Shown here: one piece after another, positions 37,827 to 63,553 of the stretch
Numbering within the stretch: position 1 is the first letter of the stretch
How the letters are laid out: every line of letters starts with the position of its first letter
Source: an uncultured Candidatus Saccharibacteria bacterium
GTDB taxonomy: Bacteria > Patescibacteriota > Minisyncoccia > Phycocordibacterales > JAACPR01
Reading direction: 5' to 3'
DNA length: 64,000 bases
Assembly: GCA_964538855.1 (NCBI GenBank)
Contig: CAZIEY010000002.1
Span: 153,007 to 217,006, forward strand
Program-made: the position numbers and the translations under genes
The notes under the pieces: generated by a model
Told to the model about the DNA's origin: nothing
The model's database searches: none
The model's input: only the letters and a program-made list of their open reading frames with translations

Positions 37827-39110
37827 CTATTCTTTATTTTCTTTTCTAAAGAAGAATAGAAACCACGCAACAAAAACTACAAACAACGCGAGAATCGTTG
37901 AAAATATTTTGTGGTCTGTGATAAACGCAAACGACGACACGTTTGCTAATTGATTTGCTCGATCCAATGAGCTTGTACCTGTAGTAGTACTTACAATGAT
38001 TTCCGCACTAGTTGTTACTGTGCTCGTTGCGGTGCTTGTTCCACTAACTTCCCCTGAAACAGTGATTCGAGGAGAGTTATTTGAAATTCGATTAGGTGTC
38101 GCTGTTACCGGATTAATTGGAGTCTGATTTTCTCGTACAGTTGTTACAACATTATTATCATTGCTATTGTTGTTATTACGAGAAGAACTACTTCGCCCGC
38201 TTCCACTTCTGCTAGAAGAACTTTCTTCATCTTTAACAGTAGTTGAACAAGTAGCGTCTATGACAACTTGACCATCAGAAGATGTAACGTCTACTGTAGC
38301 GGTTTTAGTGCCTTCTGTAGTATAAGTTTTCTTTATTGTAGTAGCTGAACCAGATAAATTATCTGTTCCATCCCAATTATAAGTATACGGAGCATCACCA
38401 CCAGACACTGAAACCGACCAAACAACTTCTTCATCAGTCTCTACCTTGCTATTGTCTGCTGAACATGAAGCGGTCAACTCTGCTGCGGCAGCCTCTACGG
38501 TTGCGGAAGCACAATTGAATGAACCTGTAACTACCTGACCGTCAGATGAACTGAGGTTTGAAACAGTACCGGTTTTTACTCCTGCAGTTGTATAAGTAAT
38601 TTTAGTCTTTTCTGTAGTACCAGAAAGACCATCAGTTCCAACGAGAGTGAATCCATATGGAGCAACTCCACCTTTTAATTTAACTGTCCAAGTAGTTTCG
38701 TATCCTGTATTTGAAACAACTTCGTTAGGAGTACAAGAATCAAATTCGAGGGGTGCAATCACAGTGAGACGTGGTGAACATTCTGCGATAGCAACAGTAA
38801 ATGCAGCATCAGTGACGGTTAATTTTGCGCCGTATGAACCAGCGGCTGTGTATGTCTTTGATGCATTTTCAGAACTTCCCGAAATTGGGTTGTTTTGTGA
38901 TCCGAGACTTGAAGCTGACCAAGAGTATGTGTATGGGGCTTCACCACCTGAAACATTAGATTTCCAAGTAACTGTATCGCCAACATAGGCAGAGTCGACC
39001 TCTGCGTTACAAGAAACAGAAAGATCCGCTGTCTGCGCGTTCACCTGTGCAATTGGCGCAATAAGCGCAAATGCCACGATTACAAGCAATTTTGATACGA
39101 ATTTGTTCAT
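37827..39110 (-). CDS. Surface protein with three PKD/Ig-like repeats, Ser/Thr-rich stalk and C-terminal TM anchor
   Basis: Signal peptide; three ~55-aa repeats (W..VSGG.APYTY.W...LSG....K.YT..G.KT.TV...SSDGQVV); low-complexity S/T/N region; C-terminal hydrophobic helix + RKENKE. Confidence 0.7.
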   Translation of the reverse strand: MNKFVSKLLVIVAFALIAPIAQVNAQTADLSVSCNAEVDSAYVGDTVTWKSNVSGGEAPYTYSWSASSLGSQNNPISGSSENASKTYTAAGSYGAKLTVTDAAFTVAIAECSPRLTVIAPLEFDSCTPNEVVSNTGYETTWTVKLKGGVAPYGFTLVGTDGLSGTTEKTKITYTTAGVKTGTVSNLSSSDGQVVTGSFNCASATVEAAAAELTASCSADNSKVETDEEVVWSVSVSGGDAPYTYNWDGTDNLSGSATTIKKTYTTEGTKTATVDVTSSDGQVVIDATCSTTVKDEESSSSRSGSGRSSSSRNNNNSNDNNVVTTVRENQTPINPVTATPNRISNNSPRITVSGEVSGTSTATSTVTTSAEIIVSTTTGTSSLDRANQLANVSSFAFITDHKIFSTILALFVVFVAWFLFFFRKENKE

Positions 39111-39140
39111 ATATTGAATGAATTTATAATTTATTAATTA

Positions 39141-39182
39141 AAGCAGTACCCTATCATATAAATAAACGTATGTCAATAGTAT
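39141..39182 (-). promoter_or_regulatory. Promoter ttgaca-N17-tagggt (minus strand) for the PKD-repeat gene; same motif recurs at 39762-39805
   Basis: Minus-strand reading TTGACAtacgtttatttatatgaTAGGGTactg; twin copy TTGACAaccacaacaaagtatgaTAGGGTgctg. Confidence 0.4.
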
Positions 39183-39278
39183 TGTTCGATTAAATTAAAG
39201 TGGGGTGAGTATAAAAAGAAAGAACCGCCGCGTCCGGTGAAGGATAGCGACGGTTCGGTGGACCCCAGTGCCTCTCGG

Positions 39279-39704
39279 CTACTGGGGGGTTGCGGTGGTA
39301 AGCGGGGTTTTTACCCGAAACACCGCGCGGTTCGCAGGAAAACGAACCGTTTCGACGGTCCAAACAATGGTAGTTCCCGAAAAGGAAACCCCCACAATCT
39401 GGCCTGAAGTAGGTGCCTGGAACGGCCCCGTTGGATCGGTTGCCCGTTCCAACTTGTACGTCCCAGTCACTGTTCCGTAATCGTAGGAAATCATCATGAG
39501 ACTTCCCGAACCCCTGGCGATTTTCACACGACCGGGCTCTGCTGTGGCACCAGTAAGATAGAAAGGCAACAGCGGCCGCGGAGCGTCGTTGATCACCACA
39601 GTTTCAGGTGACCACAACACCACCCCCTCCTGCTGTTCTCCCGCGAAGGAAGATACGAGGCAGAAAAAGGAAAGGATAATCGAAGACAGAACAAGTCGAT
39701 TCAT
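39279..39704 (-). CDS. Secreted hypothetical protein encoded in GC-rich (~57 %) island
   Basis: Signal peptide MNRLVLSSIILSFFCLVSSFA; codon/GC usage unlike flanking genes. Confidence 0.5.
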   Translation of the reverse strand: MNRLVLSSIILSFFCLVSSFAGEQQEGVVLWSPETVVINDAPRPLLPFYLTGATAEPGRVKIARGSGSLMMISYDYGTVTGTYKLERATDPTGPFQAPTSGQIVGVSFSGTTIVWTVETVRFPANRAVFRVKTPLTTATPQ

Positions 39705-39761
39705 AGAAAGAACTCCTCATGCCGTCGTCGAGATACACTTGTACCCCATACAACAACAGAA

Positions 39762-39805
39762 CAGCACCCTATCATACTTTGTTGTGGTTGTCAAATATAA
39801 AAATC
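39762..39805 (-). promoter_or_regulatory. Second copy of ttgaca-N17-tagggt promoter motif, upstream of 39279..39704
   Basis: See 39141-39182. Confidence 0.4.
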
Positions 39806-39833
39806 CTTCATTCAAAATTTAATAAAAATAGAA

Positions 39834-39862
39834 GAGCCCACGGAAACGTGTTCCGTGGGCTC
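39834..39862 (-). terminator. Terminator gagcccacggaa-acgtg-ttccgtgggctc (12-bp perfect stem) for gene 39880..40470
   Basis: Read directly; T-rich on minus strand after stem. Confidence 0.5.
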
Positions 39863-39879
39863 CGAGCATGCGCAGTTTC

Positions 39880-40470
39880 TCAGGCTGCGCAATAGCGAGC
39901 TCTCTCCTTCCTGCGGTGATTGTACTCTGCTTTGCTTCCACGATGATTGTGGGCAGCGGAGACTTCCTTAGCGACTGCAACGGCAAGAATGATTGAACCT
40001 TTTACCCCTTCTTGCCATTTTACAAGAACTGCACCTTGTCCCAACACCCAAGCAGAACCGTGGGTGTTCCCATGCCTCTTGAATGCAGAGGATACCTGGT
40101 CAGCATTCTCCCTTAGTGGAGTGACCAGGATTTTCTCACCGCCCTCCATCGTAACAATGGACTGGAATTCAATTCCTTGACCATCCCTACGTTGGTGACG
40201 CCGAAAGACCACCTCCGTACCCGACAGATCAGGGATTCGGTACTTGATCGTGACAAGGATACGATGTTGGGATTCGTACACAGGAAGTTCCCCCGTTTTT
40301 TTACACAGGTACAACCCCTCCTCTTCAACAGGGATTCCGGGTTGACGAAGGTTTATCCGAAACTTAGTGTCCGGATAATAACCCGATGTGGCTCCCCACT
40401 TTGGGTTTCCCTTCTTAGATGATCCGATTTGGGTCATCCGAAGAACGAGTCCATCTTTGAGAGAGAACAT
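39880..40470 (-). CDS. Hypothetical protein in GC-rich island
   Basis: Start at MFSLKDG with GAGGAGG RBS; no recognisable motif. Confidence 0.45.
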   Translation of the reverse strand: MFSLKDGLVLRMTQIGSSKKGNPKWGATSGYYPDTKFRINLRQPGIPVEEEGLYLCKKTGELPVYESQHRILVTIKYRIPDLSGTEVVFRRHQRRDGQGIEFQSIVTMEGGEKILVTPLRENADQVSSAFKRHGNTHGSAWVLGQGAVLVKWQEGVKGSIILAVAVAKEVSAAHNHRGSKAEYNHRRKERARYCAA

Positions 40471-40579
40471 GAACGACTTCCTCCTCAGGTTAGATTGTAA
40501 TTGGCAGCTCAAAGAGCTCCTCGTCTGATTTAATCATAGAATGAGGAGCTAAGTCAATTAAAATTGACTAGTGGAGAAA

Positions 40580-40696
40580 CTATCGCTTCTTTGATCGTCG
40601 GGCCGCAAGCATCGCCTTTTTAATAGCGAGTCGCTTTTTGGTTTTTCGAGAACGAGAAGTTTTGTTCTTGATGTCTTGTGCTGCTCTTTTTGCCAT
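40580..40696 (-). CDS. Small highly basic protein (38 aa, MAKRAAQDIKNKTSRSRKTKKRLAIKKAMLAARRSKKR); possible ribosomal-like or nucleic-acid-binding peptide
   Basis: ORF below track cutoff, different frame from listed 40558..40767 ORF; composition only. Confidence 0.25.
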   Translation of the reverse strand: MAKRAAQDIKNKTSRSRKTKKRLAIKKAMLAARRSKKR

Positions 40697-40768
40697 ACAA
40701 GTAAGTATACCTTAATTTTAAAAAAAGGCGAATTTTTTATTACAAACGTGCGAACACAACCTTTCAAA

Positions 40769-41935
40769 CTATATTTTTACAATTACACCAGCGTCAGCAT
40801 CTAATAATATCGCATCACCATCTTTAAGTACTCTTGTTGCATTCTTTGTACCAACCACGCAAGGAATTTTGTACTCTCGACTTATTAATGCTGCATGAGA
40901 CATCAGCCCACCTTCATCGGTAATCACACCAGATACTTTCGCAAACCCCATAGCGAGATGAGGGGACGTCATAGGTGCCACAATAATATCCCCTCGTTTT
41001 AATTGATCAATGAACGTATTGTAACCTTTTTCAGATAATAACGCTGGGACAATTTTAGCAGTACCCTGTACTTTTCCGGGATATACACTTTTCCCTTTTA
41101 TGCAATCAGTAGGTGCATTTTCAAAATCATTAATTTTTCTGATATCGTCCTCAGAAAGCTCTGTGATGGTAACATCGTCTTTATTAACATGTATTTCCAG
41201 ACCAAAACCTTCCATTCTTTTATTTAAGACCTCGACATTAACAGAGCCACCTACAACAAGTAAATCTTCTAATTCATGTAACGACATATTAGCCACCTGA
41301 GGAATAGTGTATTTTTTTCTAGTACTGACCACTGATATCAAACGGGCGATATCTGATGATAAATTTTCTGTGATCTGTTTCGCTTCGAATCTCATTCTTG
41401 AAACGTATCTAATCACATTAAACAAGTCTTGATATTTTTCTAATCCATATTTCATAAAACCTTTTTCTGATGATAATATGTCCGCCAATATCGCATCTAT
41501 ATTTGTATTACTTTGAGTATCTAACACAATAGTTCTCGCCTTATTTTCAAGATGTTGCACCAAATGCGGTTCAGTGAGACGATACACGGAAATAAACTTT
41601 CCAAACAAAACTATGACCTCTCTAAAGAAATTATATATTTGTGTGTTAGAGATTTTCTCAAAATCTAATTTCGAAAATGTTGTATGAAACGTAGCGATGT
41701 CATTTCTCACTTTTGCAAAATCAATTTCAATATTCAATATTTTTTGAGGATCATCAATCAGATTACTAGTTAAAACACGCACTGCCTCTATTTCATCATC
41801 GGTCGCATACGCGGACAAAACACCTTGGCGATACACAAAATAACCACTATGAAAGAAGTAGTGTTTCCCGGTGGTTTCAGTAGCCCACAAATAATCTATA
41901 AAACTTTCTCTCCATAAAAAATGCGGAGTTTTCAT
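40769..41935 (-). CDS. PEP-utilising-enzyme family protein (C-terminal phosphohistidine swivel domain) with unknown N-terminal domain
   Basis: C-terminus GGLMSHAALISREYKIPCVVG matches PEP-utilizers mobile-domain His motif. Confidence 0.6.
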   Translation of the reverse strand: MKTPHFLWRESFIDYLWATETTGKHYFFHSGYFVYRQGVLSAYATDDEIEAVRVLTSNLIDDPQKILNIEIDFAKVRNDIATFHTTFSKLDFEKISNTQIYNFFREVIVLFGKFISVYRLTEPHLVQHLENKARTIVLDTQSNTNIDAILADILSSEKGFMKYGLEKYQDLFNVIRYVSRMRFEAKQITENLSSDIARLISVVSTRKKYTIPQVANMSLHELEDLLVVGGSVNVEVLNKRMEGFGLEIHVNKDDVTITELSEDDIRKINDFENAPTDCIKGKSVYPGKVQGTAKIVPALLSEKGYNTFIDQLKRGDIIVAPMTSPHLAMGFAKVSGVITDEGGLMSHAALISREYKIPCVVGTKNATRVLKDGDAILLDADAGVIVKI

Positions 41936-41954
41936 GGTGATAGTATATCAAATG

Positions 41955-42515
41955 TTAACCCAATAATGCATGAAGTTCATCAAATCGCACAGCACATGCT
42001 TCACCGAATTTAAAGAGGTCTGCTCGCACTACTTCTACTAATTTTTCTTCTCGCAGTTTGTCTGGGTTTTTACTATAAAAACAATCGGCGTAACACACAA
42101 TTTTTTCTTCGATAGAAAGTGGCAACATGTCGCGTGCTGGAATTGGCAATTTCTGCGCGATAATTTCATCTTTGGCCAAGCCCGAACCCGTATGTCGATC
42201 CGCGACCAACGCATGACGCGGTAACCCTTCTGCTTCGAGCAATTCTCGACCCAAGTATCCGTGCGCAATATATGGCTCGGTGCCGTGACAAAAAATGCTC
42301 GGGGTATTGGTTTTGAAAATACCGATGTCGTGCAGTAGACTGGCTTCTTCGATAAAATTTCTGTCGGGATTTAAATGTGCGACGCGGTCTGCAATTTCGA
42401 GAGCTTTTGCACGGACCATTTCAACATGTGTAGTTAAAATAAGTTTGCATTCTGGATTGTCCGCATAATATTTTTCGATGAGAGCGTAGCATTGTGCGAG
42501 GTTTGGTTGTGACAT
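41955..42515 (-). CDS. HD-domain metal-dependent phosphohydrolase
   Basis: H...HD (LLHDIGIF) and downstream His/Asp ligands; start at MSQPNL. Confidence 0.6.
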   Translation of the reverse strand: MSQPNLAQCYALIEKYYADNPECKLILTTHVEMVRAKALEIADRVAHLNPDRNFIEEASLLHDIGIFKTNTPSIFCHGTEPYIAHGYLGRELLEAEGLPRHALVADRHTGSGLAKDEIIAQKLPIPARDMLPLSIEEKIVCYADCFYSKNPDKLREEKLVEVVRADLFKFGEACAVRFDELHALLG

Positions 42516-42531
42516 AGTTACATAATACACG

Positions 42532-42771
42532 TTACCAACCAGAAGTCCAAAAAAGTAATCCAGCAGTCCAAATAACAGTGCCCACGAATGCAATTATTGT
42601 ACTATTTCTTAGTACTTTATTTTGAAAAGCGACAGCAACTCTGTTAAGCCAACCAAGCGTTATCACCCAGCCCACATACAATATAAACTCATTATTTATA
42701 AAAACAGAAATTCCGAAAAATAAAATTAACGAAGCTATTGGCAAAATATACGCGTAAAATTTATTCACCAA
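42532..42771 (-). CDS. Small two-TM membrane protein
   Basis: 79-aa hydrophobic ORF. Confidence 0.3.
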   Translation of the reverse strand: MVNKFYAYILPIASLILFFGISVFINNEFILYVGWVITLGWLNRVAVAFQNKVLRNSTIIAFVGTVIWTAGLLFWTSGW

Positions 42772-42775
42772 AATA

Positions 42776-43456
42776 TTATACCACGCTAGGTTTAGCTAGT
42801 ACTCCATCAATTTTCTCCATCTCCAACTTCGTCCTCTCCCAATCCACCGGCGTCATTGAACGTAACTTTTTCTGATCGATGTCTATATCAAATACCATAT
42901 CTCTCAATTTCCACTTCCGGATTATTCCAGCGGCTTCGTATTTCGCGCTTAAGGCAAGCATCATTTCGCCAGCCTCTGCTTCGAGGTTCGCTAAATCTGC
43001 GGACGAGTAACCTTTTTCTTTCAAAAACCTGATGTCGTTATTAACCCACCGAATGCCCGCAACGCGTTCCATGACAATTAAGTAGGCGCCAGACTGTTCG
43101 ATTTTAGCAATTGGTCGTGGTGCAGGCAGACCGAGTTTTTGTAAAATCTCCATCACTTTATATTCGTAAAATGGATCAGCGTGTTTCTTTATTTGAGCTT
43201 TCTCGGTGTTAACTCTTTTAGCAACAGCAGCCAATGTTTGACCTGCAGAATTTGTCCAAACAGGTAAATCTTTCACCGCATTCGGATCTTCGTCGATGAC
43301 ACCGCTTGCGTCGTAGGTAGCTTTCCCCGATTTTATATTCACGCCTTTTTCGTTGAAATATGCGAGTGGATCGGCTATAAATTCCTCAGGCAAAAAATCA
43401 ACGAGAGTGGGTTCGATTTCAATTTTAGGAAACTGGGAAGGAGTTTCAGGATTCAT
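42776..43456 (-). CDS. Hypothetical protein, possibly atypical kinase-like fold
   Basis: YEYKVMEILQKLGL...YLIVMERVAG resembles kinase N-lobe/hinge; its last 19 codons are duplicated at 46174-46236. Confidence 0.4.
   Translation of the reverse strand: MNPETPSQFPKIEIEPTLVDFLPEEFIADPLAYFNEKGVNIKSGKATYDASGVIDEDPNAVKDLPVWTNSAGQTLAAVAKRVNTEKAQIKKHADPFYEYKVMEILQKLGLPAPRPIAKIEQSGAYLIVMERVAGIRWVNNDIRFLKEKGYSSADLANLEAEAGEMMLALSAKYEAAGIIRKWKLRDMVFDIDIDQKKLRSMTPVDWERTKLEMEKIDGVLAKPSVV
42813..42870. repeat. Copy A of 57-nt direct repeat (32-nt identical core ttctccatctccaacttcgtcctctcccaatc)
   Basis: Identical core at 46179-46210; flanks ~70 % identical. Confidence 0.6.
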
Positions 43457-43519
43457 AAATGAAGTATGCTACACATTCGGGGATGTAGATGACGATTTTG
43501 TAGGATTTCATGTAAATTA

Positions 43520-44089
43520 TTATATTACCTCCTCCAATAACTCCGGAAATTCCCTTGTCTTCATGTCGCCAAAACAGAAATGTCCGTAATTTTTGAACTC
43601 GACTGTCTTTATGCCTTGCACAGTTTCAGCGAGAATATTTGCGCTCTGTACCACATCTTTTTCGTCGTTGGTCGAAGTAAAAACCGTCACACCTTTTGTC
43701 TTTTTTACCAATTCAGGATCAATTTGCAACCCATCAAATATGGTCACATCAAATTCTCTTAGTGGATTAATCCAAGGAGCGACGAGTACCACCTTACCGA
43801 CTTTGATATTTGGTGTTTCTGATAAGTACCTGACGATAAAACCCGCTCCGCACGAATGTCCCACGAGCGCTGTATCTTCATTCAAAGTAAATTGTTCGAA
43901 CACTTTTTTCCAAGTTTCATACACCGGATTGTACGGCTCAGGCATTTCTGGTGTTTGTGTTAAAATCCCGCGTATATTTAACTGCTGTTGGAGCCAAGGT
44001 ATCCAATGACAATTGGACTGACTATCAGACTTTGCATCGAAATAGGTCTCCTTATCCGGCATTCCATGAAGTATGATAGCGGTTTTCAT
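43520..44089 (-). CDS. Alpha/beta-hydrolase (serine esterase-like)
   Basis: GHSCG (GxSxG) nucleophile elbow; 189 aa. Confidence 0.65.
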   Translation of the reverse strand: MKTAIILHGMPDKETYFDAKSDSQSNCHWIPWLQQQLNIRGILTQTPEMPEPYNPVYETWKKVFEQFTLNEDTALVGHSCGAGFIVRYLSETPNIKVGKVVLVAPWINPLREFDVTIFDGLQIDPELVKKTKGVTVFTSTNDEKDVVQSANILAETVQGIKTVEFKNYGHFCFGDMKTREFPELLEEVI

Positions 44090-44196
44090 ATACCATATGT
44101 TAACAAAAGGTTACAAGACCCACAATGATTTCATAATTTCCACCTTCTAGTATCAACATGTGCTTATTAAGAGGAAATAACGACGAAGTTGCAATT

Positions 44197-45279
44197 TTAA
44201 ATCTGTCTAAGCGCCGGTCGATACCCAGTCGCATCGCCGTTTTTGTTAAATCCGTACGTACCTAAAACTCCGTCGAAATCTGTCAGAGTGTGAAGGTAAT
44301 TTTGTATCGTCTCCGAATCTATGCTTTTTGTATCGTCAATAGCTCGCTTTAATACATAGACCGAATCATATGTAACAGAAACTGCAAAATCAAAAGTGGG
44401 CTGACCAAATCGTTCCTTGTAAGTTGAAAATATTTTTTCTTTTTTACTAGTATTAGGGATTTCAGGATCTGCCGGATATGTCATACCCTTTGCGAAAGGA
44501 ATATTCCGTATTTCTGGTATGCTGCCCACATAATTCCCGTAGATCGCCCCTTTATATTTTCTTTGTTCAAGTTGATTCAAAATAGCTATTGCACTCCCCG
44601 ATTCGTTTGCATTTATAAATATAGCTTGCGGATTGTGACTCATTATCTTTTGCACCTGTGTCCGCACATCTGTCGAATGTGGCAAAGCATCCTCGCTGTA
44701 CAGAGTGCCCGTATAATGTTTTTTAAAAGCCTCTTTCATTCCTGCAGAATAATCCCCGAGTTCAGTAATAATACCTACGGATGTATATTTTGTATTCATA
44801 TCTTCGGCAATAATCTGCGCCGAGTCTTCATCAGAGTGTGAATTACGAAAAACATATTCACTCATGCCAGATATCTGAGGATTTGTAGACCATACTGCAA
44901 TGAGATTTATTTTGGCACGATCGGCAATCTCTCCTGCTGCCAAAGTTTCTGCCGAGCAAGACGACATAAGGAAATTTACACGATCAATAGAGATAAGTTT
45001 TTGCGCCGCAATCGAAGCTGTTTTCGCATCACATTTTCCGTCTTCGTAAATTACTTCCAGTCGTTTACCCAGAGTATCCCCTGCGGAATTAATTTCTTCA
45101 ATCGCTAATTCCATAGCATGCTTCTCTTCAATTCCCCATGATGCACCGAAACCCGTAAGTGGGGCGATAAAACCAATTTTAATTGATTCATTATTTGTGG
45201 TTTTAGAACTGTTAATACCAACTGCTGCGGCAATAGTAATAATTGCTACAAAAACCCATATTTTGTGGTTTATTTTCAT
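44197..45279 (-). CDS. ABC transporter substrate-binding protein, LivJ/Leu-Ile-Val-binding family (orphan)
   Basis: Signal/TM anchor, type I periplasmic-binding fold length and motifs (IGFIAPLTG...); no adjacent permease/ATPase. Confidence 0.75.
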   Translation of the reverse strand: MKINHKIWVFVAIITIAAAVGINSSKTTNNESIKIGFIAPLTGFGASWGIEEKHAMELAIEEINSAGDTLGKRLEVIYEDGKCDAKTASIAAQKLISIDRVNFLMSSCSAETLAAGEIADRAKINLIAVWSTNPQISGMSEYVFRNSHSDEDSAQIIAEDMNTKYTSVGIITELGDYSAGMKEAFKKHYTGTLYSEDALPHSTDVRTQVQKIMSHNPQAIFINANESGSAIAILNQLEQRKYKGAIYGNYVGSIPEIRNIPFAKGMTYPADPEIPNTSKKEKIFSTYKERFGQPTFDFAVSVTYDSVYVLKRAIDDTKSIDSETIQNYLHTLTDFDGVLGTYGFNKNGDATGYRPALRQI

Positions 45280-45414
45280 ACAACATAAACCCTATCAACA
45301 AAACAAAATATGTTTAGTAGGTATCGACATGTATACAATAAAAGGTCTATTATATCCATATACAAAGCCATACTATTGTTGACTGTGGTACAACAACATG
45401 TTAGCGTATTTTAT

Positions 45415-46173
45415 ATGAATAGCCCGCTTACCACCCTAGGCTTTACTGATAATGAAATCGACGTATACGTTGCTGTGCTTAAGTTTGGCAAAATTTCCTA
45501 CAGTGACGTGTCTAAACATACACATCTCAATAGAACCACAACATACGGAATTGTCCGCTCCCTCATCAAAAAAGGCTTGATTCACGAAGACATCGGTTCT
45601 ACCAAGAAATACTTGGTCGCCTCAGAACCCCGCGAGCTTTTATCACATTTGGAAATCGAACAAAAAGAATTAGACAACAAAAAATCTCTTGCGCTAAAAG
45701 CAGTGGAGGAACTTTCTCATATCGAGAAAACCAATAAACATTTTGCACCTCGAATTCGATTTATAGAAGAAGACAAAATCGAGAAATTTCTCTTTACACA
45801 ATCCGCGAAATGGAATAACTCGATACATATGTACGATAAAAAATGGTGGGGATTCCAAGACGCTTCTTCGATCAAGACCTACAAAAAGTGGCTCACGCAA
45901 TGGCAAAAGGAACCCAGTTCAAAAGGGATCGGCGCGCGGCTCATCACTAATTTGTCTGAGACTGAAAAATCTCTTCAGAATAATCATAGTGACCGAATCA
46001 TCAAATTTTGGGATGCGGACGAAGAGCGATTTGATTCGACATTGTGGGTAGCCGGAGATTACGTCATTACAATTGTCAGCACACACAACCCACACTACCT
46101 CATCGAAACTCACGACCCAATCATGGCGAATAACTTGCGAGGAGTGTTTAAGCAGTTGTGGAAGAGGTTGTAA
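45415..46173 (+). CDS. TrmB-like winged-helix transcriptional regulator (putative)
   Basis: Start at MNSPLTTLGFTDNEIDVYVAVLKFGKISYSDVS...TTYGIVRSLIKKGLI = TrmB N-terminal wHTH pattern. Confidence 0.45.
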   Translation: MNSPLTTLGFTDNEIDVYVAVLKFGKISYSDVSKHTHLNRTTTYGIVRSLIKKGLIHEDIGSTKKYLVASEPRELLSHLEIEQKELDNKKSLALKAVEELSHIEKTNKHFAPRIRFIEEDKIEKFLFTQSAKWNNSIHMYDKKWWGFQDASSIKTYKKWLTQWQKEPSSKGIGARLITNLSETEKSLQNNHSDRIIKFWDADEERFDSTLWVAGDYVITIVSTHNPHYLIETHDPIMANNLRGVFKQLWKRL

Positions 46174-46178
46174 TTTTA

Positions 46179-46237
46179 TTTCTCCATCTCCAACTTCGTC
46201 CTCTCCCAATCAACAGACGTCAGCGATCTTACTTTTC
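46179..46237. repeat. Copy B of 57-nt direct repeat; encodes remnant ...RSLTSVDWERTKLEMEK* (minus strand) matching C-terminus of gene 42776..43456
   Basis: Translation of minus strand gives KVRSLTSVDWERTKLEMEK-stop vs RSMTPVDWERTKLEMEK in the intact gene. Confidence 0.6.
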
Positions 46238-47296
46238 AATAAAGATTCCGTCTCTAAACACTTTTTGAGTAAAATCCCCCACTCTAGTTCCATTATGATC
46301 AAATCTAATTACACCCGAAAAACCTTCGTAATTGATGGTCGATAAATTACTCTTCCATGTAAGTACATTTGAATTATATGTTTTATTAATAAGACCTATC
46401 AAATCATATGCGTAATCCGCAGCAAATGCAGGTTTGCTGTTATATTGTCTTTCATATAGATTTGAAAATGTATCGTTCTGTCTCTTGAAGAATACAGAAA
46501 TACAGCCATCAAAGGGCTCATCCCCTATCGATTCAATATATGGAATTATAGTAACCTCCATATCTGGATTGCAAAATATCTTTTGTGTAGAATCTTTCAT
46601 TAAATACCATTTACTCAGAAATGGAACGCCAATTTCTGGGGTGGCCAGCACGGACACGGCTTGATACTCTTTATTACTTGCAATCAATGTAGCCATTCTC
46701 GACACATCACTTTTGCCTCCTATAACAAAAATCGAACTACTTGCAACATCGAAAGATTCTGAGAATCTAGACGCTGCATTTTTAAAAGTACCAGAATCTT
46801 GATAGACAAGAGCAACATTCGAGAAGTATGTAGAGACAACACGCCCGAGCTCCGTATACAAAGTTGAGGCGGATGGCATTATTTGAAAAATAGTATCATC
46901 AAAAGATTCACTTGGTTCAGCAATTTGAAATACTATAATAGGACTATCTTTAATGAGTGGTGCAATAGCATCCGCTGTTGTCGGTGATGTGTTTATTATC
47001 AAATTTACTTTATCAAGATTTATAAGCTTTAGATAAGCCGCAACTCCTTTTTTGGGGTCAAAACCATCATCCTCATAAATAATTGTATAAGGTACTTTTA
47101 ATTGATTATTCGCAAGCTCCAAGGCATTTCTAATACCATCACCTATAACAGCTTGCTCCCCGGAAAGTGGTAAAATTACTCCTATCTTAATTTTGTCCAA
47201 ATTTTTATTATTTGAAAATACCGCAACAAAAAGAGCGTTAATTACTATAATCAAACCGACTACAACTAATATCTTTTTATTTCTCATATATAGCAA
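46229..47296 (-). CDS. ABC transporter substrate-binding protein, LivJ family (orphan)
   Basis: As 44197..45279; N-terminal TM anchor. Confidence 0.75.
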   Translation of the reverse strand: MLYMRNKKILVVVGLIIVINALFVAVFSNNKNLDKIKIGVILPLSGEQAVIGDGIRNALELANNQLKVPYTIIYEDDGFDPKKGVAAYLKLINLDKVNLIINTSPTTADAIAPLIKDSPIIVFQIAEPSESFDDTIFQIMPSASTLYTELGRVVSTYFSNVALVYQDSGTFKNAASRFSESFDVASSSIFVIGGKSDVSRMATLIASNKEYQAVSVLATPEIGVPFLSKWYLMKDSTQKIFCNPDMEVTIIPYIESIGDEPFDGCISVFFKRQNDTFSNLYERQYNSKPAFAADYAYDLIGLINKTYNSNVLTWKSNLSTINYEGFSGVIRFDHNGTRVGDFTQKVFRDGIFIEK

Positions 47297-47357
47297 TTAT
47301 AATGCCTGAGTTTATAAGATTGAATTTTTGTACATTTTATGTACACTAGCACTATAT

Positions 47358-48017
47358 ATGGATATCCACGAAATACATAAAACCGAGCAAGAGATACTGA
47401 AAATACTCTCTACTCAACGGAAAGCGGTGAATATAAGTCAGTTAGCTTTTAGAATTAACATATCGCGAACAAGTATATACAATGCGATTAGAAAGTTACT
47501 TATCAAAAAATTTATAGTAAAAGATGGTCATGGGTATAGGCTTAACAAACACATCAGTTCATCCCCTCTCTCGATATACACAGATTCCAATGTTCTAATA
47601 AAAAAATTAATGGGAGAGCTTTTGACTTTAAAAAAGGGTGAGATAATTTATTCTATAGAAGCCGATAGTGAGATTGAGACTCTTGTGAAAGATAGGGTTT
47701 GGTTTTCGAAATGGCAAGATACAGTAATTAAAAATGGAATAGTATTAAAAGGTGTTGGATCTGCTAACGGGCTTTTGTTACTAAAAAACATACTTACTGA
47801 AAAAGAAAAATCTAAAATAAAAGAAAGAAGCGGGAGTGCGAGATTTATTCCGACAGAAATAAATACGCACATTAATTTAATCGTTTTTAAAAACTCAACT
47901 GTGTTATTTTCGAGGAAGCTTAATATTTTCCAAAGAATAGACAACAAAGATATATCTGATACATTCAGAATTATTCTAGACTCCCTCTACCTAAGCGGAA
48001 CTAGTGATGTGATCTAA
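47358..48017 (+). CDS. Winged-helix (TrmB/MarR-like) regulator-like protein
   Basis: Start at MDIHEIHK; EQEILKILSTQRKAVNISQLAFRINISRTSIYNAIRKL wHTH; architecture parallels 45415..46173. Confidence 0.4.
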   Translation: MDIHEIHKTEQEILKILSTQRKAVNISQLAFRINISRTSIYNAIRKLLIKKFIVKDGHGYRLNKHISSSPLSIYTDSNVLIKKLMGELLTLKKGEIIYSIEADSEIETLVKDRVWFSKWQDTVIKNGIVLKGVGSANGLLLLKNILTEKEKSKIKERSGSARFIPTEINTHINLIVFKNSTVLFSRKLNIFQRIDNKDISDTFRIILDSLYLSGTSDVI

Positions 48018-48072
48018 TTAATATATTTATTAGGTGATGATTTTGTAGGATTTTATATGTATAAATTATAAA

Positions 48073-48720
48073 TTAAAAAGAGGCGGTTATATAACCCCAC
48101 ACATTTTTAATATTTTTGTCCTTCTCCCAATATGCAGCGATCTTTTGTCGCATTTCTGCATGTTGAGGATACCCTTTATCAACCACTCCTTCAGGCAGCA
48201 AATCTTTGCATTCCACATTTAACAAAACTGTCAGAGCCTCTTTTATGTCATTATATTTTTGATGTCCGAGCCTTTCTTCTTGATCAGAACCTAATCCATA
48301 CCATGTATAGAAGTGCCACAATTCATGCATTGTAGTTTGTATAGCTTGCGAGGATTGAAGAGAAACATAAAAGAAATTATTTTCGATACTGTACGGACAT
48401 CGACTGTTAATTGTCAGATACGCAGTAAGATCTTGTGGAAGCACAACTCCGAAAATTGCTTCTGCCCTCTTTTGAAATTCAGACGAAATACGTTCCCAGT
48501 CAGCTTGAGATGCCGCAATTCGATTTTTAATATCGATATGATTTTCGGTGATATATTCATCAATAAATACACCGACTGATTCTGTGGTTGGATTCTCTCC
48601 GTATTTTTGAACAAGCTGTGTGTATTGCTTGGTTGGGTTTTGTGAGTGACTTGAGCTTTTACCTTTGTTAAGAAGACACCAGATGTCCTTGTCTCTGTCG
48701 TATGTAAAATTGATGCGCAT
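48073..48720 (-). CDS. Hypothetical protein with HExxH motif (putative zinc metallopeptidase)
   Basis: TMHELWHFYTW. Confidence 0.35.
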   Translation of the reverse strand: MRINFTYDRDKDIWCLLNKGKSSSHSQNPTKQYTQLVQKYGENPTTESVGVFIDEYITENHIDIKNRIAASQADWERISSEFQKRAEAIFGVVLPQDLTAYLTINSRCPYSIENNFFYVSLQSSQAIQTTMHELWHFYTWYGLGSDQEERLGHQKYNDIKEALTVLLNVECKDLLPEGVVDKGYPQHAEMRQKIAAYWEKDKNIKNVWGYITASF

Positions 48721-48756
48721 ATGAAAAGTATATCAAAATCTGTCCTCAACCGCCCA

Positions 48757-49476
48757 TTACATCGTCTTATCAAACTCCCCTTTTACATAACTCAAAAACC
48801 TAAACAACAACTCGTTGCTTGGCTTGTAATCATTGCGACGCAATTGATGTTCGTCTTGAACATATTTCAAGTTCTTGTATTTTTCTAATTCGTCTTTACT
48901 GTTTTGAATCATTCCTTCGATGCTCTCTGGGGTGAATTCGAAATGGCATTGGAAGCCGTACATTTTAGGTGAATATTTCACAATCTGTCGTGGACAACCT
49001 TCGCTCGTTGCAAGTATTTCTGATGTCGCAGTCAGCCCCGGCATATCACCGTGCCAGTGTCCGACCAAACATGTCGATGGAAATGTGCCGATGATCGGGT
49101 CTTTTTTTCCTTGTTCGGTTAGACTCAACATAAACAAACCGATTTCTTTGTTTGGACTATGTTCAAATCGAGCACCTAATGCTTCACCTATTAATTGAGC
49201 ACCCAAACACACGCCGAGTAAAAATTTGTCCTGTGCAATGACTTGTTGAATAAATCGAATTTCTTTCGCAGCGTCGAAATGTGGACATTCAGCGAACGTT
49301 GTAGATGGAGACTGCGGCCCACCCATCACAATCAAAAAATCAATCTCGTTAATGTTATTTGGAAAGTCCTCATTCTGATATATTTTTGTATACGAAACTT
49401 TGCAATTATTTTTCAAAGCCCAATCCACGATTGCGCCTGGTGCTTCGAAACTTTCGTGCATGATGATGTGGATTTT
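48757..49476 (-). CDS. Type 1 glutamine amidotransferase-like protein
   Basis: Start at MKIHIIMHE; LIVMGGPQSP and GVCLGAQLIGEALG (Cys nucleophile elbow). Confidence 0.6.
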   Translation of the reverse strand, partial: KIHIIMHESFEAPGAIVDWALKNNCKVSYTKIYQNEDFPNNINEIDFLIVMGGPQSPSTTFAECPHFDAAKEIRFIQQVIAQDKFLLGVCLGAQLIGEALGARFEHSPNKEIGLFMLSLTEQGKKDPIIGTFPSTCLVGHWHGDMPGLTATSEILATSEGCPRQIVKYSPKMYGFQCHFEFTPESIEGMIQNSKDELEKYKNLKYVQDEHQLRRNDYKPSNELLFRFLSYVKGEFDKTM

Positions 49477-49489
49477 CATGAGCAATATA

Positions 49490-50065
49490 TTAAAACGTTT
49501 TAAACTCCCCATCCCTAAGAGTACAAATCTCCAAGCTTTCTTTGTACTCGGATAGTTTATTGAGCAATGCACCCCAATCAATAACGAGCCCTTCATTATA
49601 ATCTGATTTCCAATGAGGAATAAATTTTATCGGCAATACGCCAAATCCTTCTCCAAGTCTGCTTGTTTTTCCAACACCGAAATATTTTGAGAGCATACTC
49701 GCCCCACCCGAACTTGCTACAACTGTTTTGTCAGCAAGCATATCGATCCACCCTGGAATGGCCTGTAATACGCTCATAATATCTTCTGGTCGAGAGCCTT
49801 GAAAAAATATAACGTCATTTTCTTTAACTTGTTGAGCAAATTTTTCTTGTGAAGCGAGTTCGACTTGGACCGAATCAATGTATTGCGAAAAAAATTGTTG
49901 ATCATCAGAAAATTTCTGATCCCAAGTTTCGAGTGGTCTTCCAAATAAACAATCAAGCAGTTTAATCGGCTGATGAGCAATATCCTTAGTGATTTCCTTA
50001 CAAAATGCAGCGCCACCGTCAGGAGCTTTGTAGTAGTAACCGCCGGAGAGAATAAACTTTGTCAT
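49490..50065 (-). CDS. Peptidase S51 (dipeptidase E/cyanophycinase-like) family protein
   Basis: ILSGGYYY...VVASSGGASM... layout of S51/GATase1-like fold. Confidence 0.5.
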   Translation of the reverse strand: MTKFILSGGYYYKAPDGGAAFCKEITKDIAHQPIKLLDCLFGRPLETWDQKFSDDQQFFSQYIDSVQVELASQEKFAQQVKENDVIFFQGSRPEDIMSVLQAIPGWIDMLADKTVVASSGGASMLSKYFGVGKTSRLGEGFGVLPIKFIPHWKSDYNEGLVIDWGALLNKLSEYKESLEICTLRDGEFKTF

Positions 50066-50111
50066 GCGAAAATTATATCATAGAAGCACCTTCACGATTA
50101 CATAAGGTGTC

Positions 50112-50726
50112 TTAATCTAAATACCCCTCAATCTCCCCCGGACTCTCCGCAAATCCCGCCACGAATTTTTCCATTCCAGAAAAATGTGACTTGTCTTGAT
50201 ATCCGTACGTCACCAAAATAATTCGCATGCCGAAATCTTTTGCATCAAGCACGTCGCCAACTGTATCAGTGATAAATGTCGCGTCATTACCACAGACATT
50301 ATAATCGCGTAAAATCTTTTCGAACTTCACTTTTTTATCTTTGGATGTTTCAGTGCCGTAAATCACGTCGAAATAATCAATTCTATTTTTGACGAGAAAC
50401 TTTTTTGTCGAGTCCGCATCCGCCGAAGTATTAATGACCAAAGTATGACCGTCCGCATGAAGCTTTTGTATAAGCGTATCTATCCCCGCAAATATCGGCA
50501 ACTCGTTTTTAGTTGGAAAATAAACTTCATTCATCCATCGTTCTTTTTCTTCTTTTGATTGAGCCGACGGCCCCATTTTCGCAATTTCCTCGTGAATATT
50601 TCCATTGAAAAAAGCCTTGTGCTGTTCTGGCTTTAAATCAGACCAGTCACGCAGATTCATTTCGTATGAGTGTCTCCAACTGTCTGCGATGACTCCGTCG
50701 AAGTCGAAGATGATGAGTTTTTTCAT
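50112..50726 (-). CDS. HAD-superfamily hydrolase
   Basis: MKKLIIFDFDGVIADS (DxD motif I), downstream motif II/III pattern. Confidence 0.7.
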   Translation of the reverse strand: MKKLIIFDFDGVIADSWRHSYEMNLRDWSDLKPEQHKAFFNGNIHEEIAKMGPSAQSKEEKERWMNEVYFPTKNELPIFAGIDTLIQKLHADGHTLVINTSADADSTKKFLVKNRIDYFDVIYGTETSKDKKVKFEKILRDYNVCGNDATFITDTVGDVLDAKDFGMRIILVTYGYQDKSHFSGMEKFVAGFAESPGEIEGYLD

Positions 50727-50989
50727 AAATAATTATATATTAATACTTCATCTTACACTTACCTAACCAAAACACCACACTCTTGCAAGTGTTTGCTATG
50801 TACAATAATATCTTTCTGTAAAGATCTAAAGTACATCCAACACAAATGAAAAAAATAGCCATACTAAATTCTACAACTTCAAGGAAAAATTCTTAGGAAA
50901 AAACAACATGGCTAAATTTTAGCTTGTTTTTATTGGTAAATATAGTATAAATTCAACCTAGTGGACCATTCAAAAATAACACTACCTAC

Positions 50990-52417: not shown

Positions 52418-52468
52418 ATTTCATCTCTGAAATAATGCCTCTCCACTAGGTTCCTCTCCCCATAGCAG

Positions 52469-53587
52469 CTAAATACTCACAAACAATCCATTCTCCACCT
52501 TTCGAATCTGATATTCACGTTGCGCTTGGCAGTCTGTATCAAAACTCTTGGCTTTTCCGGTGATGAGTGGGTAATCAGTAAGGTTCGATATATAGTTTCC
52601 GACTTCTTGAGGAGATTCTCCGACGACTTTTATTGCATCGAGGGCAAGTTTTACACCATCATAATACGCTGCTGTCGGAAGACTTGGATGTGTGCCGAAT
52701 TGTTCGAGGTAAGCCTGCTTGTATGCTTTCACACTCGGTGTATCACTATTGCTTGGTTCAGATTGATAGTTCCAGTCTACAAATACAATTCCATTCGCAA
52801 GCTTCTTGTCCTGGAGTACAGGATTCTGGATAGTATTATAGTCACTGTAAATTGGTTTATTCCAACCAAGATTAGAAATTTGTTGAAGCATAGTTTGGGC
52901 AGTATTTGCAGCATTTACCGTGATCAAGGCTCCAGTTGTACTCATAACTGTCTTTAATTTTGTGATGTTAGTCCTGAAATCTGAAGTTGCCGCGTCGAAT
53001 GGTTCCGAAGCAGTGACAGTTCCACCTAGTGCAACATACACCTTGGTAAATTCATCTGATATTCCTTTACCGAATTCATTATTCGGCATGAGAAGCGCAG
53101 TTGTTTTAATATTTGAATTAATCAATTGCTGAGCAAGCGCAGGGCCGATATCTTTTGCGGTCATAGTTGTACGACATGACAACGTATTATTATCTATGAA
53201 CGCTGGGGTTGTTGCTCCTGAAGAAATAATAAAGTTACCATCAGTGATTGCAACGGGACGCACCGCAGCTGCTACAGGACTGTATTCAACAACAAAGAAT
53301 TTCACACCTCTAGTTTTAAGTGCTTGATATGCATCAAGACCTTTTTTCGCATCGGAAGCGGTATCTTCGATCAGTAGTTCTACTGGCTGACCATTAATAC
53401 CGCCAGCATCATTTATATTCTTTACCGCAAGTTCAGCACTTTGTTTCTGAAATTCACCGTATGCCGCAAGAGGACCAGTGAGCGTGTAAAGAGCTCCAAT
53501 CTTGAGTGGTGTTTCGGAAGTGTTGTTCTTCCATCCCATGACGAAAATGACGATAATAACGACTACTACAAGAAGGTATTTTTTCAT
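52469..53587 (-). CDS. ABC transporter substrate-binding protein, LivJ family (orphan)
   Basis: Third paralogous SBP. Confidence 0.75.
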   Translation of the reverse strand: MKKYLLVVVVIIVIFVMGWKNNTSETPLKIGALYTLTGPLAAYGEFQKQSAELAVKNINDAGGINGQPVELLIEDTASDAKKGLDAYQALKTRGVKFFVVEYSPVAAAVRPVAITDGNFIISSGATTPAFIDNNTLSCRTTMTAKDIGPALAQQLINSNIKTTALLMPNNEFGKGISDEFTKVYVALGGTVTASEPFDAATSDFRTNITKLKTVMSTTGALITVNAANTAQTMLQQISNLGWNKPIYSDYNTIQNPVLQDKKLANGIVFVDWNYQSEPSNSDTPSVKAYKQAYLEQFGTHPSLPTAAYYDGVKLALDAIKVVGESPQEVGNYISNLTDYPLITGKAKSFDTDCQAQREYQIRKVENGLFVSI

Positions 53588-53688
53588 ATTTGTTATAGCT
53601 TAGTGCTAGGTTAATTGTAGCAAATTTAAATCCAACATAAAATGCTTGCACATAGTCACAGCTGATCAAAACAAGCAATTCGAGGCAT

Positions 53689-55008: not shown

Positions 55009-55013
55009 AGTAA

Positions 55014-56114
55014 TTATTCTACCATTACATAGGAACCGCCCCGAATCTGGCGAAGTTCTGTATCTTGAAAAGATTGCTGACCGTACTCATTAAATTTTAT
55101 TACGTTTGAATAACCAACATAATTATCGACAGAATTTAGATAATTTTTGATATCTTCTCCATTTTTAGCTCCAGATTTTATTGCATCAATAACAAGCATA
55201 GTCATATCATAAGATGTTGCAGCACTAATTGCTGATGGTAAAGTTCCGAAACGCTTCAAATATTTATCGTTGAATTCTGATGTTTTTACGTACACCTTGT
55301 CGGCTGGATAATATATTCCATCTCCAATGCTTGCTCCTGCCTGATTAGACAACAATGATTGAATGGAGCCAACTGGCATGAAGATTGGTAAGTTAATTCC
55401 GAGTTCTTTTGTTTGTCTCGCAAAAACCTCTGGCTTACTGCCACCTGATATAACAGCGTAGATAACATCAGCGTCGCTATTTTTTAATTTAAGCAATTCT
55501 GTTCGATAATCAGAAATTCCCTCGTTTGTCTTTGATTCAAAAACAATACTAAGGTCTTTATAATTATCTTTTACTTCCTGCTTGACGACCGCCGCCAAAT
55601 TATCTGACCAAGAGCTCACGTTCGAATAGAGAGCAACTTTTTTATGTCCAGATTTAACCATGTAATCCAAGACCTCTTTAACTTGAAATCTTTCGCTGGC
55701 TGTTGCTGAAAAATAATATGGTAATTTAGACCACTCGAATTCGCTTGCCATCCAAGGAGAAATGACTGGAACATTCGCGGTATTTCCAATAGGTGCGGCA
55801 ACTTCACCCCACTCTGCCCATTCTGGACCAATAATTACGTCCACACCGTCTACGTTGATCAATTTTCTAGTCGCAGTAACTGTTTTAGAAATATCTGACT
55901 GAGTATCTTCCAAAACATAATCAACATCTAGACCGGAATCCTCTATCGCCATGATAAAACCATTACGAGAAGATTCTCCAGCAAATGACACAAATCCAGT
56001 TTGACCAAACAATCCACCAATTTTTATCGTGTTATTTGTTTCAGTGGGCTTGTTCAAAGATACTGCCAAAATGATTATCGCAATTACTACTACTGGCCAA
56101 ATTATTTTTTTCAT
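55014..56114 (-). CDS. ABC transporter substrate-binding protein, LivJ family (orphan)
   Basis: Fourth paralogous SBP. Confidence 0.75.
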   Translation of the reverse strand: MKKIIWPVVVIAIIILAVSLNKPTETNNTIKIGGLFGQTGFVSFAGESSRNGFIMAIEDSGLDVDYVLEDTQSDISKTVTATRKLINVDGVDVIIGPEWAEWGEVAAPIGNTANVPVISPWMASEFEWSKLPYYFSATASERFQVKEVLDYMVKSGHKKVALYSNVSSWSDNLAAVVKQEVKDNYKDLSIVFESKTNEGISDYRTELLKLKNSDADVIYAVISGGSKPEVFARQTKELGINLPIFMPVGSIQSLLSNQAGASIGDGIYYPADKVYVKTSEFNDKYLKRFGTLPSAISAATSYDMTMLVIDAIKSGAKNGEDIKNYLNSVDNYVGYSNVIKFNEYGQQSFQDTELRQIRGGSYVMVE

Positions 56115-56199
56115 ATAGAAATGATTGTATCAAAATAGGGACTAAATACAATGTGAGCCTAGTCGAGATGCGACCCAAAGGTTCATTGACCCACAAGGC

Positions 56200-56394
56200 T
56201 TATTTAGGCTCTTTCTGACCTTCTGGTCGACCCTTCTCGAGAGTAGCTTTCTCTGCATACAAATGAGGATTTTGTTTCCTATCTTGATCCAGTAACCATT
56301 GAAATACTGCGACCACTCTGTCACTTTCTTCTTTAGTCCAGTTTCTAAGATTTTTCTTGTTTTCTTGATTCATAAAAAGTGACAAAAGTGACAT
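56200..56394 (-). CDS. Small hypothetical protein (64 aa) at distal end of LexA-led operon
   Basis: ORF begins with tandem gtcactttt repeat; WTKEESDRVVAVFQWLLDQ. Confidence 0.3.
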   Translation of the reverse strand: MSLLSLFMNQENKKNLRNWTKEESDRVVAVFQWLLDQDRKQNPHLYAEKATLEKGRPEGQKEPK

Positions 56395-56416
56395 TCGTAC
56401 ACTTTTTCCATATTAG

Positions 56417-63225: not shown

Positions 63226-63364
63226 GTTCGTCGCGATTTATTTTATAAATTCCTAAAGATGAGACACAAAAATCCCATCACTAGGAAGACCCGAAGGTCT
63301 CTACACCAGTTTCCCGATGTAACGCGACGAACGCCCTAATGATGGGGTTTTTAAGTTCGTCGCG
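63226..63364 (-). promoter_or_regulatory. Attenuator/riboswitch-like leader with mutually exclusive helices: X1/X2 (cgcgacgaac, two copies) vs Y (gttcgtcgcg), and a 17-bp terminator helix enclosing a UUCG-capped hairpin
   Basis: Plus-strand: gttcgtcgcg 63226-35 and 63355-64; inverse cgcgacgaac 63323-32; terminator arms 63268-85 / 63334-52 with T-runs both sides; gaccUUCGggtc inner hairpin (minus-strand sense). Confidence 0.4.
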
Positions 63365-63553
63365 ATTTTGACCATATCCTTTGAAATTTCAAAGGGGTTA
63401 GGTCCAATTAATATGTAATTGTCAGGATTAAATGATACAACAAAAGCATCGTTTAATCCAGTTTAGATTATATCGCTGAACACTCTCTTTGCTAAGACTT
63501 GGTGACGACCACACTACGCTTTTCCGTGTTTGCATAGATATATTAAAAAATGT

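Follow-up and report, generated by a model that had tools for sequence, protein, structure and literature searches.

A 33-nt non-coding copy of an internal gene segment between two binding protein-regulator modules of an uncultured Saccharibacteria bacterium: a probable scar of illegitimate recombination

A 64,000-nt stretch of DNA from an uncultured Candidatus Saccharibacteria bacterium (GenBank assembly GCA_964538855.1, contig CAZIEY010000002.1, positions 153,007 to 217,006 of the forward strand), hereafter called the window, carries a short direct repeat, R1. One copy (R1a) lies inside a gene, here named geneX, the other (R1b) in the spacer between two convergent genes, TrmB1, encoding a helix-turn-helix (HTH) regulator, and SBP2, encoding a LivJ-type periplasmic binding protein (SBP). 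On the evidence of the sequence comparisons, R1b may be regarded as shown to be an untranslated copy of internal geneX sequence, placed at a breakpoint between two SBP-regulator modules. On balance, R1b is best viewed as a non-functional scar of illegitimate recombination, and probably as the relic of a second geneX copy, the body of which was replaced by SBP2 and the adjacent regulator gene HTH2. The features on which this reading is built include a second repeat, R2, and are the following.

42776..43456, minus strand: geneX, 226 aa, source of both R1 and R2; 174 homologues, studied with AlphaFold and Foldseek
42812..42844, minus strand: R1a, native copy of the R1 core, encoding DWERTKLEMEK, geneX codons 205-215 of 226
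46179..46211, minus strand: R1b, ectopic non-coding copy of the core, in the 55-nt spacer where TrmB1 and SBP2 converge; present also in contigs L010, L015 and L021
46212..46236, minus strand: flank of R1b, of which 46229-46236 are the last codon and stop of SBP2, and 46212-46228 the 17 nt past that stop
43486..43511, minus strand: R2a, in the leader of geneX, within the 63-nt spacer from the hydrolase stop to the geneX start; with small gaps it reaches about 43528
48031..48056, minus strand: R2b, in the spacer delimited by two stops, that of HTH2 (48017) and that of a 215-aa gene (48073)

In the repeat search of the window, R1 extends over 58 nt (42812-42869 and 46179-46236), and the two copies, 3367 nt apart, are 84% identical. 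The direct repeat had been reported, at coordinates agreeing within 1 nt, in an original prediction drawn from the bare sequence, and is real. The identical core measures 33 nt (42812-42844 = 46179-46211; plus strand TTTCTCCATCTCCAACTTCGTCCTCTCCCAATC) and not the 32 nt given there, and the flank of about 25 nt, to which 70% identity had been assigned, matches at 16 of 25 positions, or 64%. Both translations were recovered. The first copy, read on the minus strand within ORF (open reading frame) 42776..43456, gives ...KKLRSMTPVDWERTKLEMEKIDGVLAKPSVV followed by the stop, the gene end being ...QKKLRSMTPVDWERTKLEMEKIDGVLAKPSVV; the second gives KVRSLTSVDWERTKLEMEK, 19 codons enclosed between two stops and overlapping the SBP2 stop codon (46229-46231). 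At up to three mismatches, the core has two matches in the window against zero expected in 100 shuffles, and a chance match is excluded. Self-BLASTN of the 64-kb window (word size 11) returned R1 and no further direct repeat. The core had no match in scans of JGI metagenomes and IMG/VR, and in the loci fetched from relatives the core motif is confined to geneX orthologues. Membership in a widespread intergenic repeat family, the possibility that the original prediction had set against itself, is contradicted by these counts, which cover the 64-kb window, the two scans and the fetched loci. R1b shares with repetitive extragenic palindromic sequences, bacterial interspersed mosaic elements and miniature inverted-repeat transposable elements its location, as a short sequence in a spacer between convergent genes, but differs from them in that R1 has two copies only in 64 kb, one of which is coding, neither terminal inverted repeats nor a hairpin are present, and the metagenome and IMG/VR scans were empty.

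R1a is, as judged from its orthologues, native coding sequence on both sides. The closest geneX orthologue for which DNA is available, in contig L004, is 81% identical at the amino acid level, and matches the core at 31 of 33 positions and the sequence upstream of it at 25 of 27; downstream, the two can be aligned only loosely. Protein P0144 (226 aa, in the same 90% cluster as the protein of L004) ends KIDGVLTKLGMV. Since this tail is homologous to the 11-codon tail of geneX, KIDGVLAKPSVV, the latter is native. The original prediction had the repeat form the 3' end of the gene; it is instead an internal 33-nt piece, followed by the 11 native codons. In L004 (positions 1175-1215), protein P0002 (215 aa) stops directly after ...KLDMDK, a natural truncation at the very place where the ectopic copy ends, and the TAA next to R1b, which resembles this truncated variant, is taken as a coincidence. 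A candidate history in which the 11-codon tail is a junction artefact, and the TAA of the remnant the ancestral stop, was rejected, P0144 carrying the tail and L004/P0002 being the truncated form. A NUDIX remnant 3' of geneX, as in L004, was searched for and not found.

R1b has the opposite character. The core lies entirely inside the TrmB1-SBP2 spacer, belongs to neither neighbouring gene, and has no start codon and no complete ORF. Read in the frame of geneX it gives DWERTKLEMEK, with 33/33 nt identity to the intact gene. Relative to that gene it is truncated on both sides, the geneX body being absent upstream and the 11-codon tail absent downstream. The 5' part of geneX was sought elsewhere in the window by tblastn at E <= 100, which gave nothing beyond the 19-codon piece. 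A match of the ...ADWER... type in the 215-aa gene (E = 0.32) was taken as due to chance. An imperfect inverted match spans 46153-46215, where the last codons of TrmB1, GTTGTGGAAGAGG (LWKR), face the core, GTTGATTGGGAGAGG (minus strand, DWER), and form with it a long-loop hairpin in the minus-strand fold, which is not significant as a whole (z = -1.0).

The flank of R1b is in part a different matter. SBP2 orthologues with 79% and 77% amino acid identity end ...VFVEK before their stop, contig L011 having GAAAAGTGAGA where the window has GAAAAGTAAGA. As the ends align, positions 46229-46236 are the last codon and stop of SBP2 itself, and are not derived from geneX; the C-terminus of SBP2 is intact, its orthologues ending ...FVEK or FIEK. 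The alternative that the SBP2 stop and C-terminus had been built from the remnant was discarded, orthologues ending ...VFVEK with GAAAAGTGA. The remaining 17 nt (46212-46228) match geneX at 11/17 positions (P about 9e-4, fixed register) and the 3' untranslated region (UTR) of L011 at 9/17 (P about 0.017). Their origin is ambiguous, and the 33-mer is, from these alignments, the part that may safely be called geneX-derived. The original prediction was right about the second copy as a non-coding fragment of a gene 3' region, sitting at a module junction, and wrong about roughly one third of the flank, which is SBP2 codon and stop. For annotation, this means that the 19-codon "remnant ORF" across the SBP2 stop is partly coincidental and should stay unannotated.

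The same flank is the ground for supposing that all 58 nt are homologous, R1b being what is left of an anciently diverged geneX paralogue or xenologue. Its flank would have diverged under coding constraint, whereas the core would have been homogenised later, by gene conversion from the resident geneX, or would itself be the block in which a homeologous crossover took place. This is quite improbable. In its favour, seven of the eight residues of the in-frame KVRSLTSV agree with the family profile, second codon positions are free of the nine flank differences, and the 17 nt resemble geneX beyond chance expectation. Yet the K, the V and part of the R are encoded by the 8 nt that belong to SBP2, and for this reason represent an accidental likeness; chance thus makes part of the protein match. 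In addition, a serine replaces a proline invariant in the family, and a flank divergence of 36% can be reconciled neither with 0/33 changes in the core nor with R2, a non-coding repeat of 88% identity. Gene conversion would also have to be assumed as one further event. DNA of a geneX homologue matching AGATCGCTGACGTCTGTT would support this origin.

The transition from core to flank has the features of a join. A conserved block of about 60 nt (TAATTT..TTC.GAAAG.CACG.CTTG) found in the 3' UTR of the SBP2 orthologues (L011, positions 1775-1885; L012, positions 3540-3677), which may be the end of a small convergent ORF or an RNA element, is absent from the window. The orthologous 3' UTR being missing beyond about 17 nt, a breakpoint with respect to the module of the orthologues lies at 46211|46212. 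The mismatches are distributed 0/33 and 9/25, and the probability that all nine sit in one end is about 2e-4. A change so abrupt argues against uniform divergence, and fits a join at partly alike sequences, with geneX continuing.

The other end of the module is marked by R2. Its two copies are identical at 23 of 26 positions, with an exact run of 15 nt and three differences, all transitions, and R2 is unique within the window. When the search space was shuffled 200 times with dinucleotides preserved, one shuffle attained the local-alignment score; milder gap costs extend the alignment to about 43-46 nt, with a score of 26 that none of 500 shuffles reached. R2 is colinear with R1, the order on the plus strand being R1a < R2a < R1b < R2b, and both R2 copies lie in spacers. 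At the first locus R1 and R2 bracket the geneX body (641 nt), at the second SBP2 plus HTH2 (1819 nt). The latter module is trimmed to 17 and 13 nt past its two stop codons, and at the HTH2 end similarity to the orthologue is lost within about 13 nt of the stop. With a GC content of 33.2%, where the flanks have 40.2% and 39.3%, the module falls in the 3rd percentile of windows of the same size. The offsets differ, 3367 nt for R1 and 4545 nt for R2, and the difference of 1178 nt equals 1819 (module) minus 641 (geneX body). A simple tandem duplication consequently fits only if a replacement followed it. R2a falls inside a 21-codon upstream ORF that overlaps the start of geneX, MKSYKIVIYIPECVAYFIYES before its stop (43446-43511, minus strand). 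In the corresponding region of R2b (48021-48056) the reading is IKSYKIIT followed by two stops, ATA standing in place of ATG. A leader peptide, or the dead 5' end of yet another gene, may be involved. Also considered as a third relic was the 3' end of the hydrolase (GGTAATATAA) within the last codons of the 215-aa gene; it was dropped, since P0145 shares ...TAS and the end, though C-termini vary in this family, looks native.

According to the reading preferred here, the 215-aa gene and TrmB1 were once separated by a second copy of geneX, nearly identical and including the leader. This copy may have arisen by tandem duplication of about 3.4 kb, or by a Campbell-type insertion that duplicated geneX. 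The AT-rich SBP2/HTH2 module would then have replaced the body of this copy through illegitimate joins, so that only the leader and, from the 3' region, 33 nt were left. The right junction, 46211|46212, would have formed where the short SBP2 3' UTR happened to resemble geneX, that is, through a join guided by homeology or microhomology, and this would explain the abrupt fall in identity from 33/33 to 16/25. The replacement would predate the split of the two sampled strains, which are 98.5% identical. Such a history is the most economical one, given that R1 and R2 bracket both loci. Several points weigh against it. R2, a short and AT-rich sequence, was picked after the repeat list had been seen, and reaches moderate significance (about 0.005 over the search space). 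Its three differences in 26 nt, set against none in the 33 nt of R1 (Fisher, about 0.08), are compatible with a single age, but not cleanly so. The 17-nt flank fits geneX better than chance predicts, and is also compatible with descent from a diverged paralogue. Neither an intact second geneX copy nor the ancestral arrangement was found in any relative examined, where all neighbours differ at 70-80% amino acid identity. At least two events are needed, and within the source genome the copy counts cover the 64-kb window.

Homology-facilitated illegitimate recombination and microhomology-mediated template switching, as in microhomology-mediated break-induced replication (MMBIR) or fork stalling and template switching, are known mechanisms. 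R1b resembles their products, since patchy similarity abuts the joined or copied sequence and short templated segments lie at the breakpoints; the analogy is a mechanistic one only. Template switching could also dispense with a full second copy of geneX, if an MMBIR-like process, during repair or replication of the rearrangement that brought the SBP2/HTH2 module to its present place, had copied short geneX pieces at the module joins. A free 3' end from the SBP2 3' UTR would have annealed to a partly matching site in the nearby geneX, been extended by about 30 nt, and switched back, R2b being a second patch. The polarity suits this scheme: on the minus strand the patchy 16/25 lies 5' of the perfect 33 nt, as a primer precedes its copy. 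A 16/25 match (P about 8e-5 per site) is expected about once in some 10^4 nearby sites if the best partner is chosen, the sources of both patches lie within 700 nt of each other, and the patches sit exactly at the two module boundaries. We nonetheless consider this origin, the main rival of the preferred history, rather unlikely. About four template switches would be needed in a single event, the nucleotide directly before the core is mismatched (T versus G), and R2b, with its three transitions, is no fresh exact copy unless it mutated later. To our knowledge, moreover, templated junction insertions are poorly documented in bacteria, which counts against the scheme.

The junction is no assembly quirk, as its contexts recur in independent data. 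L015 and L010, two Logan contigs assembled from other runs, reproduce window positions 42815-46208 and 46182-57287, respectively, with 100% identity, and a contig from a different strain, L021, with 98.5% identity (22 mismatches in 1475 nt), has the same junction between the SBP end and the core. On this comparison R1b can be taken as shown to be older than the 1.5% strain split. Both Logan contigs terminate exactly 30 nt into the core. Logan assemblies use k=31, and contig ends at this position are what a repeat of 33 nt should cause in a graph of that k. In practical terms, an exact repeat of 33 nt suffices to break such assemblies at both copies, a fact which speaks for an artefact as far as it goes; but both junction contexts recur in three data sets of independent origin, and a two-copy direct repeat permits one linear path only through all segments. 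An assembly artefact, a chance match (zero being expected in shuffles) and an att-type duplication, caused by site-specific integration into the 3' end of geneX, make up together an extremely improbable class of explanations. The last finds encouragement in the fact that a direct repeat with a gene 3' region flanks a multi-gene segment, as at the icd locus, where prophage e14 supplies a new 3' end, leaves a 163-bp pseudo-icd', and lies downstream of the intact icd (PMC6379469). The likeness extends to an exact core beside diverged sequence, with kilobases of DNA between the copies. Here, however, no integrase or recombinase is encoded in or beside the segment, either among the bracketed genes identified by Pfam or among the neighbours (HD, PEP-utiliser, GATase, HAD). 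The geometry is also wrong, the extra copy at 46179 being upstream of geneX (5' end 43456), so that the bracket holds the gene body, and the copy includes no real gene end, as it stops at codon 215 of 226 and the 11-codon tail is not duplicated.

It could be argued that the spacer copy has been kept as a functional RNA, either because read-through transcripts of TrmB1 would contain 33 nt perfectly complementary to geneX mRNA, or because the copy, purine-rich in the SBP2 3' UTR, would act there as a terminator or a decoy. R1 is perfectly kept (33/33) against three changes in R2, R1b is common to two strains, and it falls within the 3' UTRs of both convergent genes. This possibility is nevertheless very improbable: the folding scores (z = -1.0 and -0.94) are significant on neither strand, no terminator-like site is found in the spacer, no Rfam match occurs in 38000-48500 even at E <= 0.1, and R1b is absent 3' of the SBP2 and TrmB1 orthologues of relatives. 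If the event is not much older than the 1.5% strain split, 0/33 changes are expected by chance. Hardly more credit is due to the idea that R1 and R2 are docking arms of 26-33 nt for a recombinase-free exchange of SBP-regulator cassettes at geneX-type loci of Patescibacteria, or that antisense RNA transcribed from TrmB1 ties geneX to the SBP regulon.

The scar-and-relic interpretation finds better company among gene remnants generated by duplication followed by deletion or replacement, as in the relics of Rickettsia and Mycobacterium leprae. R1b is likewise a short untranslated spacer piece identical to an intact gene, devoid of ORF and structure, in a context where neighbours vary among relatives, and a further colinear trace, of moderate significance, is provided by the leader repeat R2, in the same order and on the same strand. 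R1b differs in being 33 nt in all, still perfect and internal, with the intact gene 2.7 kb away, and in being accompanied by a second relic from the geneX leader, the two bracketing a different two-gene module. R1b is thus to be placed among the ordinary relics of genes and scars of rearrangement, which are features of a known kind.

The genes around the repeats are the following.

43520..44089, minus strand: serine hydrolase of the alpha/beta fold, 189 aa; Pfam PF06821, E = 1.1e-11
44197..45279, minus strand: SBP1, LivJ-type periplasmic binding protein, 360 aa; Pfam PF13458 (Peripla_BP_6), E = 2.9e-42
45310..46173, plus strand: TrmB1, TrmB-like HTH regulator; Pfam PF01978
46229..47296, minus strand: SBP2, LivJ-type binding protein by Pfam; the 352-aa database form starts at 47287
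47328..48017, plus strand: HTH2, winged-helix regulator, 219 aa from 47358; Pfam HTH_11, MarR, TrmB
48073..48720, minus strand: 215-aa gene, HELWH motif, not assigned to any family; right neighbour of R2b, C-terminus looks native

The true start of TrmB1 is likely near 45415, because its orthologues measure 251-252 aa. Pfam bears out the hydrolase, SBP and TrmB-like regulator named in the original prediction, and the bracketed DNA contains nearly all of geneX as well. Four LivJ-type SBP genes, all on the minus strand, lie within 12 kb (44197..45279, 46229..47296, 52469..53587 and 55014..56114), with a mutual identity of 24-32%, and two of them have an HTH regulator as partner; the annotated stretch shows neither a permease nor an ATPase gene of the ABC type. 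A weak SMODS-like gene lies near 57.1 kb. Over 167 aa, SBP1 and SBP2 share 32% of their residues; between the regulators TrmB1 and HTH2 the identity is 24%. A recent tandem duplication of SBP cassettes was rejected on the strength of these figures, and by their sequences the SBPs of the window are to be seen as old paralogues, not recent duplicates. In relatives the divergent pairs are kept (SBP2/HTH2 in L011-L014, SBP1/TrmB1 in L016, L019 and L020), but beyond them the neighbours vary from one relative to the next (polysaccharide deacetylase, DUF5991, NrdD, or an unrelated convergent gene). Among the loci compared, three distant ones from a scan of genome contigs and ten-odd contigs from Logan, ENA and JGI, what is shared is limited to the query gene or the SBP-regulator pair, and relatives at 70-83% amino acid identity have no neighbours in common. 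The neighbours of geneX differ in every relative examined, and in none does geneX adjoin either pair; the juxtaposition is therefore specific to this lineage. In the comparison of gene order, as first suggested, the sole close strain (L021) has the identical junction. The claim that duplication or recombination had shuffled SBP cassettes survives as a rearrangement junction of two SBP-regulator modules, and fails as a recent SBP duplication. Nor does anything show that the bracketed 3.4-kb segment moved as a unit; R2 points to the 1.8-kb SBP2+HTH2 module as the incoming piece.

Two further features of the window deserve mention. An island of 1.66 kb (39111-40768) has 49-51% GC, in a window of 39.5% GC. 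Its ORFs 39279..39704 and 39880..40512, both on the minus strand, have no Pfam or PHROG match, and no Rfam match at E <= 0.1. The minus-strand RNA of 39111-40010 has a folding z of -7.8 and two perfect hairpin terminators. The island may represent foreign genes, or an undescribed structured RNA. A full-length LOOT RNA (RF03000; 77.7 bits, E = 6.4e-13) is located at 63286-63404, on the minus strand, and is the sole Rfam family to reach the gathering score in the window.

The gene from which the repeats derive is conserved across Patescibacteria. At E <= 1e-3 geneX has 174 homologues, those with names coming from metagenome-assembled genomes of Patescibacteria, Paceibacterota or Parcubacteria, and family identity is about 50% across Paceibacterota. 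Searches of Pfam, NCBIfam and PHROG gave no family match. In an alignment of 22 members P203, D205, W206, E207, R208 and T209 (PxDWERT) are invariant. The AlphaFold model built on this alignment has a predicted local distance difference test score of 90, and Foldseek against the PDB retrieved RIO2 (E = 1.6e-5, template modelling score about 0.4), along with other protein kinases. A RIO2-like kinase fold is accordingly predicted for geneX, with PxDWERT plausibly in the place of the metal-binding DFG-type motif. As the core encodes the invariant DWERT, the 33-mer coincides with the most conserved motif of a small protein with a putative kinase fold.

As a scar, R1b matters little by itself. It records the joining of two SBP-regulator modules in this lineage, and probably also the overwriting of a duplicated kinase-fold gene. 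GeneX, representing a widely conserved and unannotated Patescibacteria family with a predicted RIO-like kinase fold, is probably of greater biological interest than the repeat.

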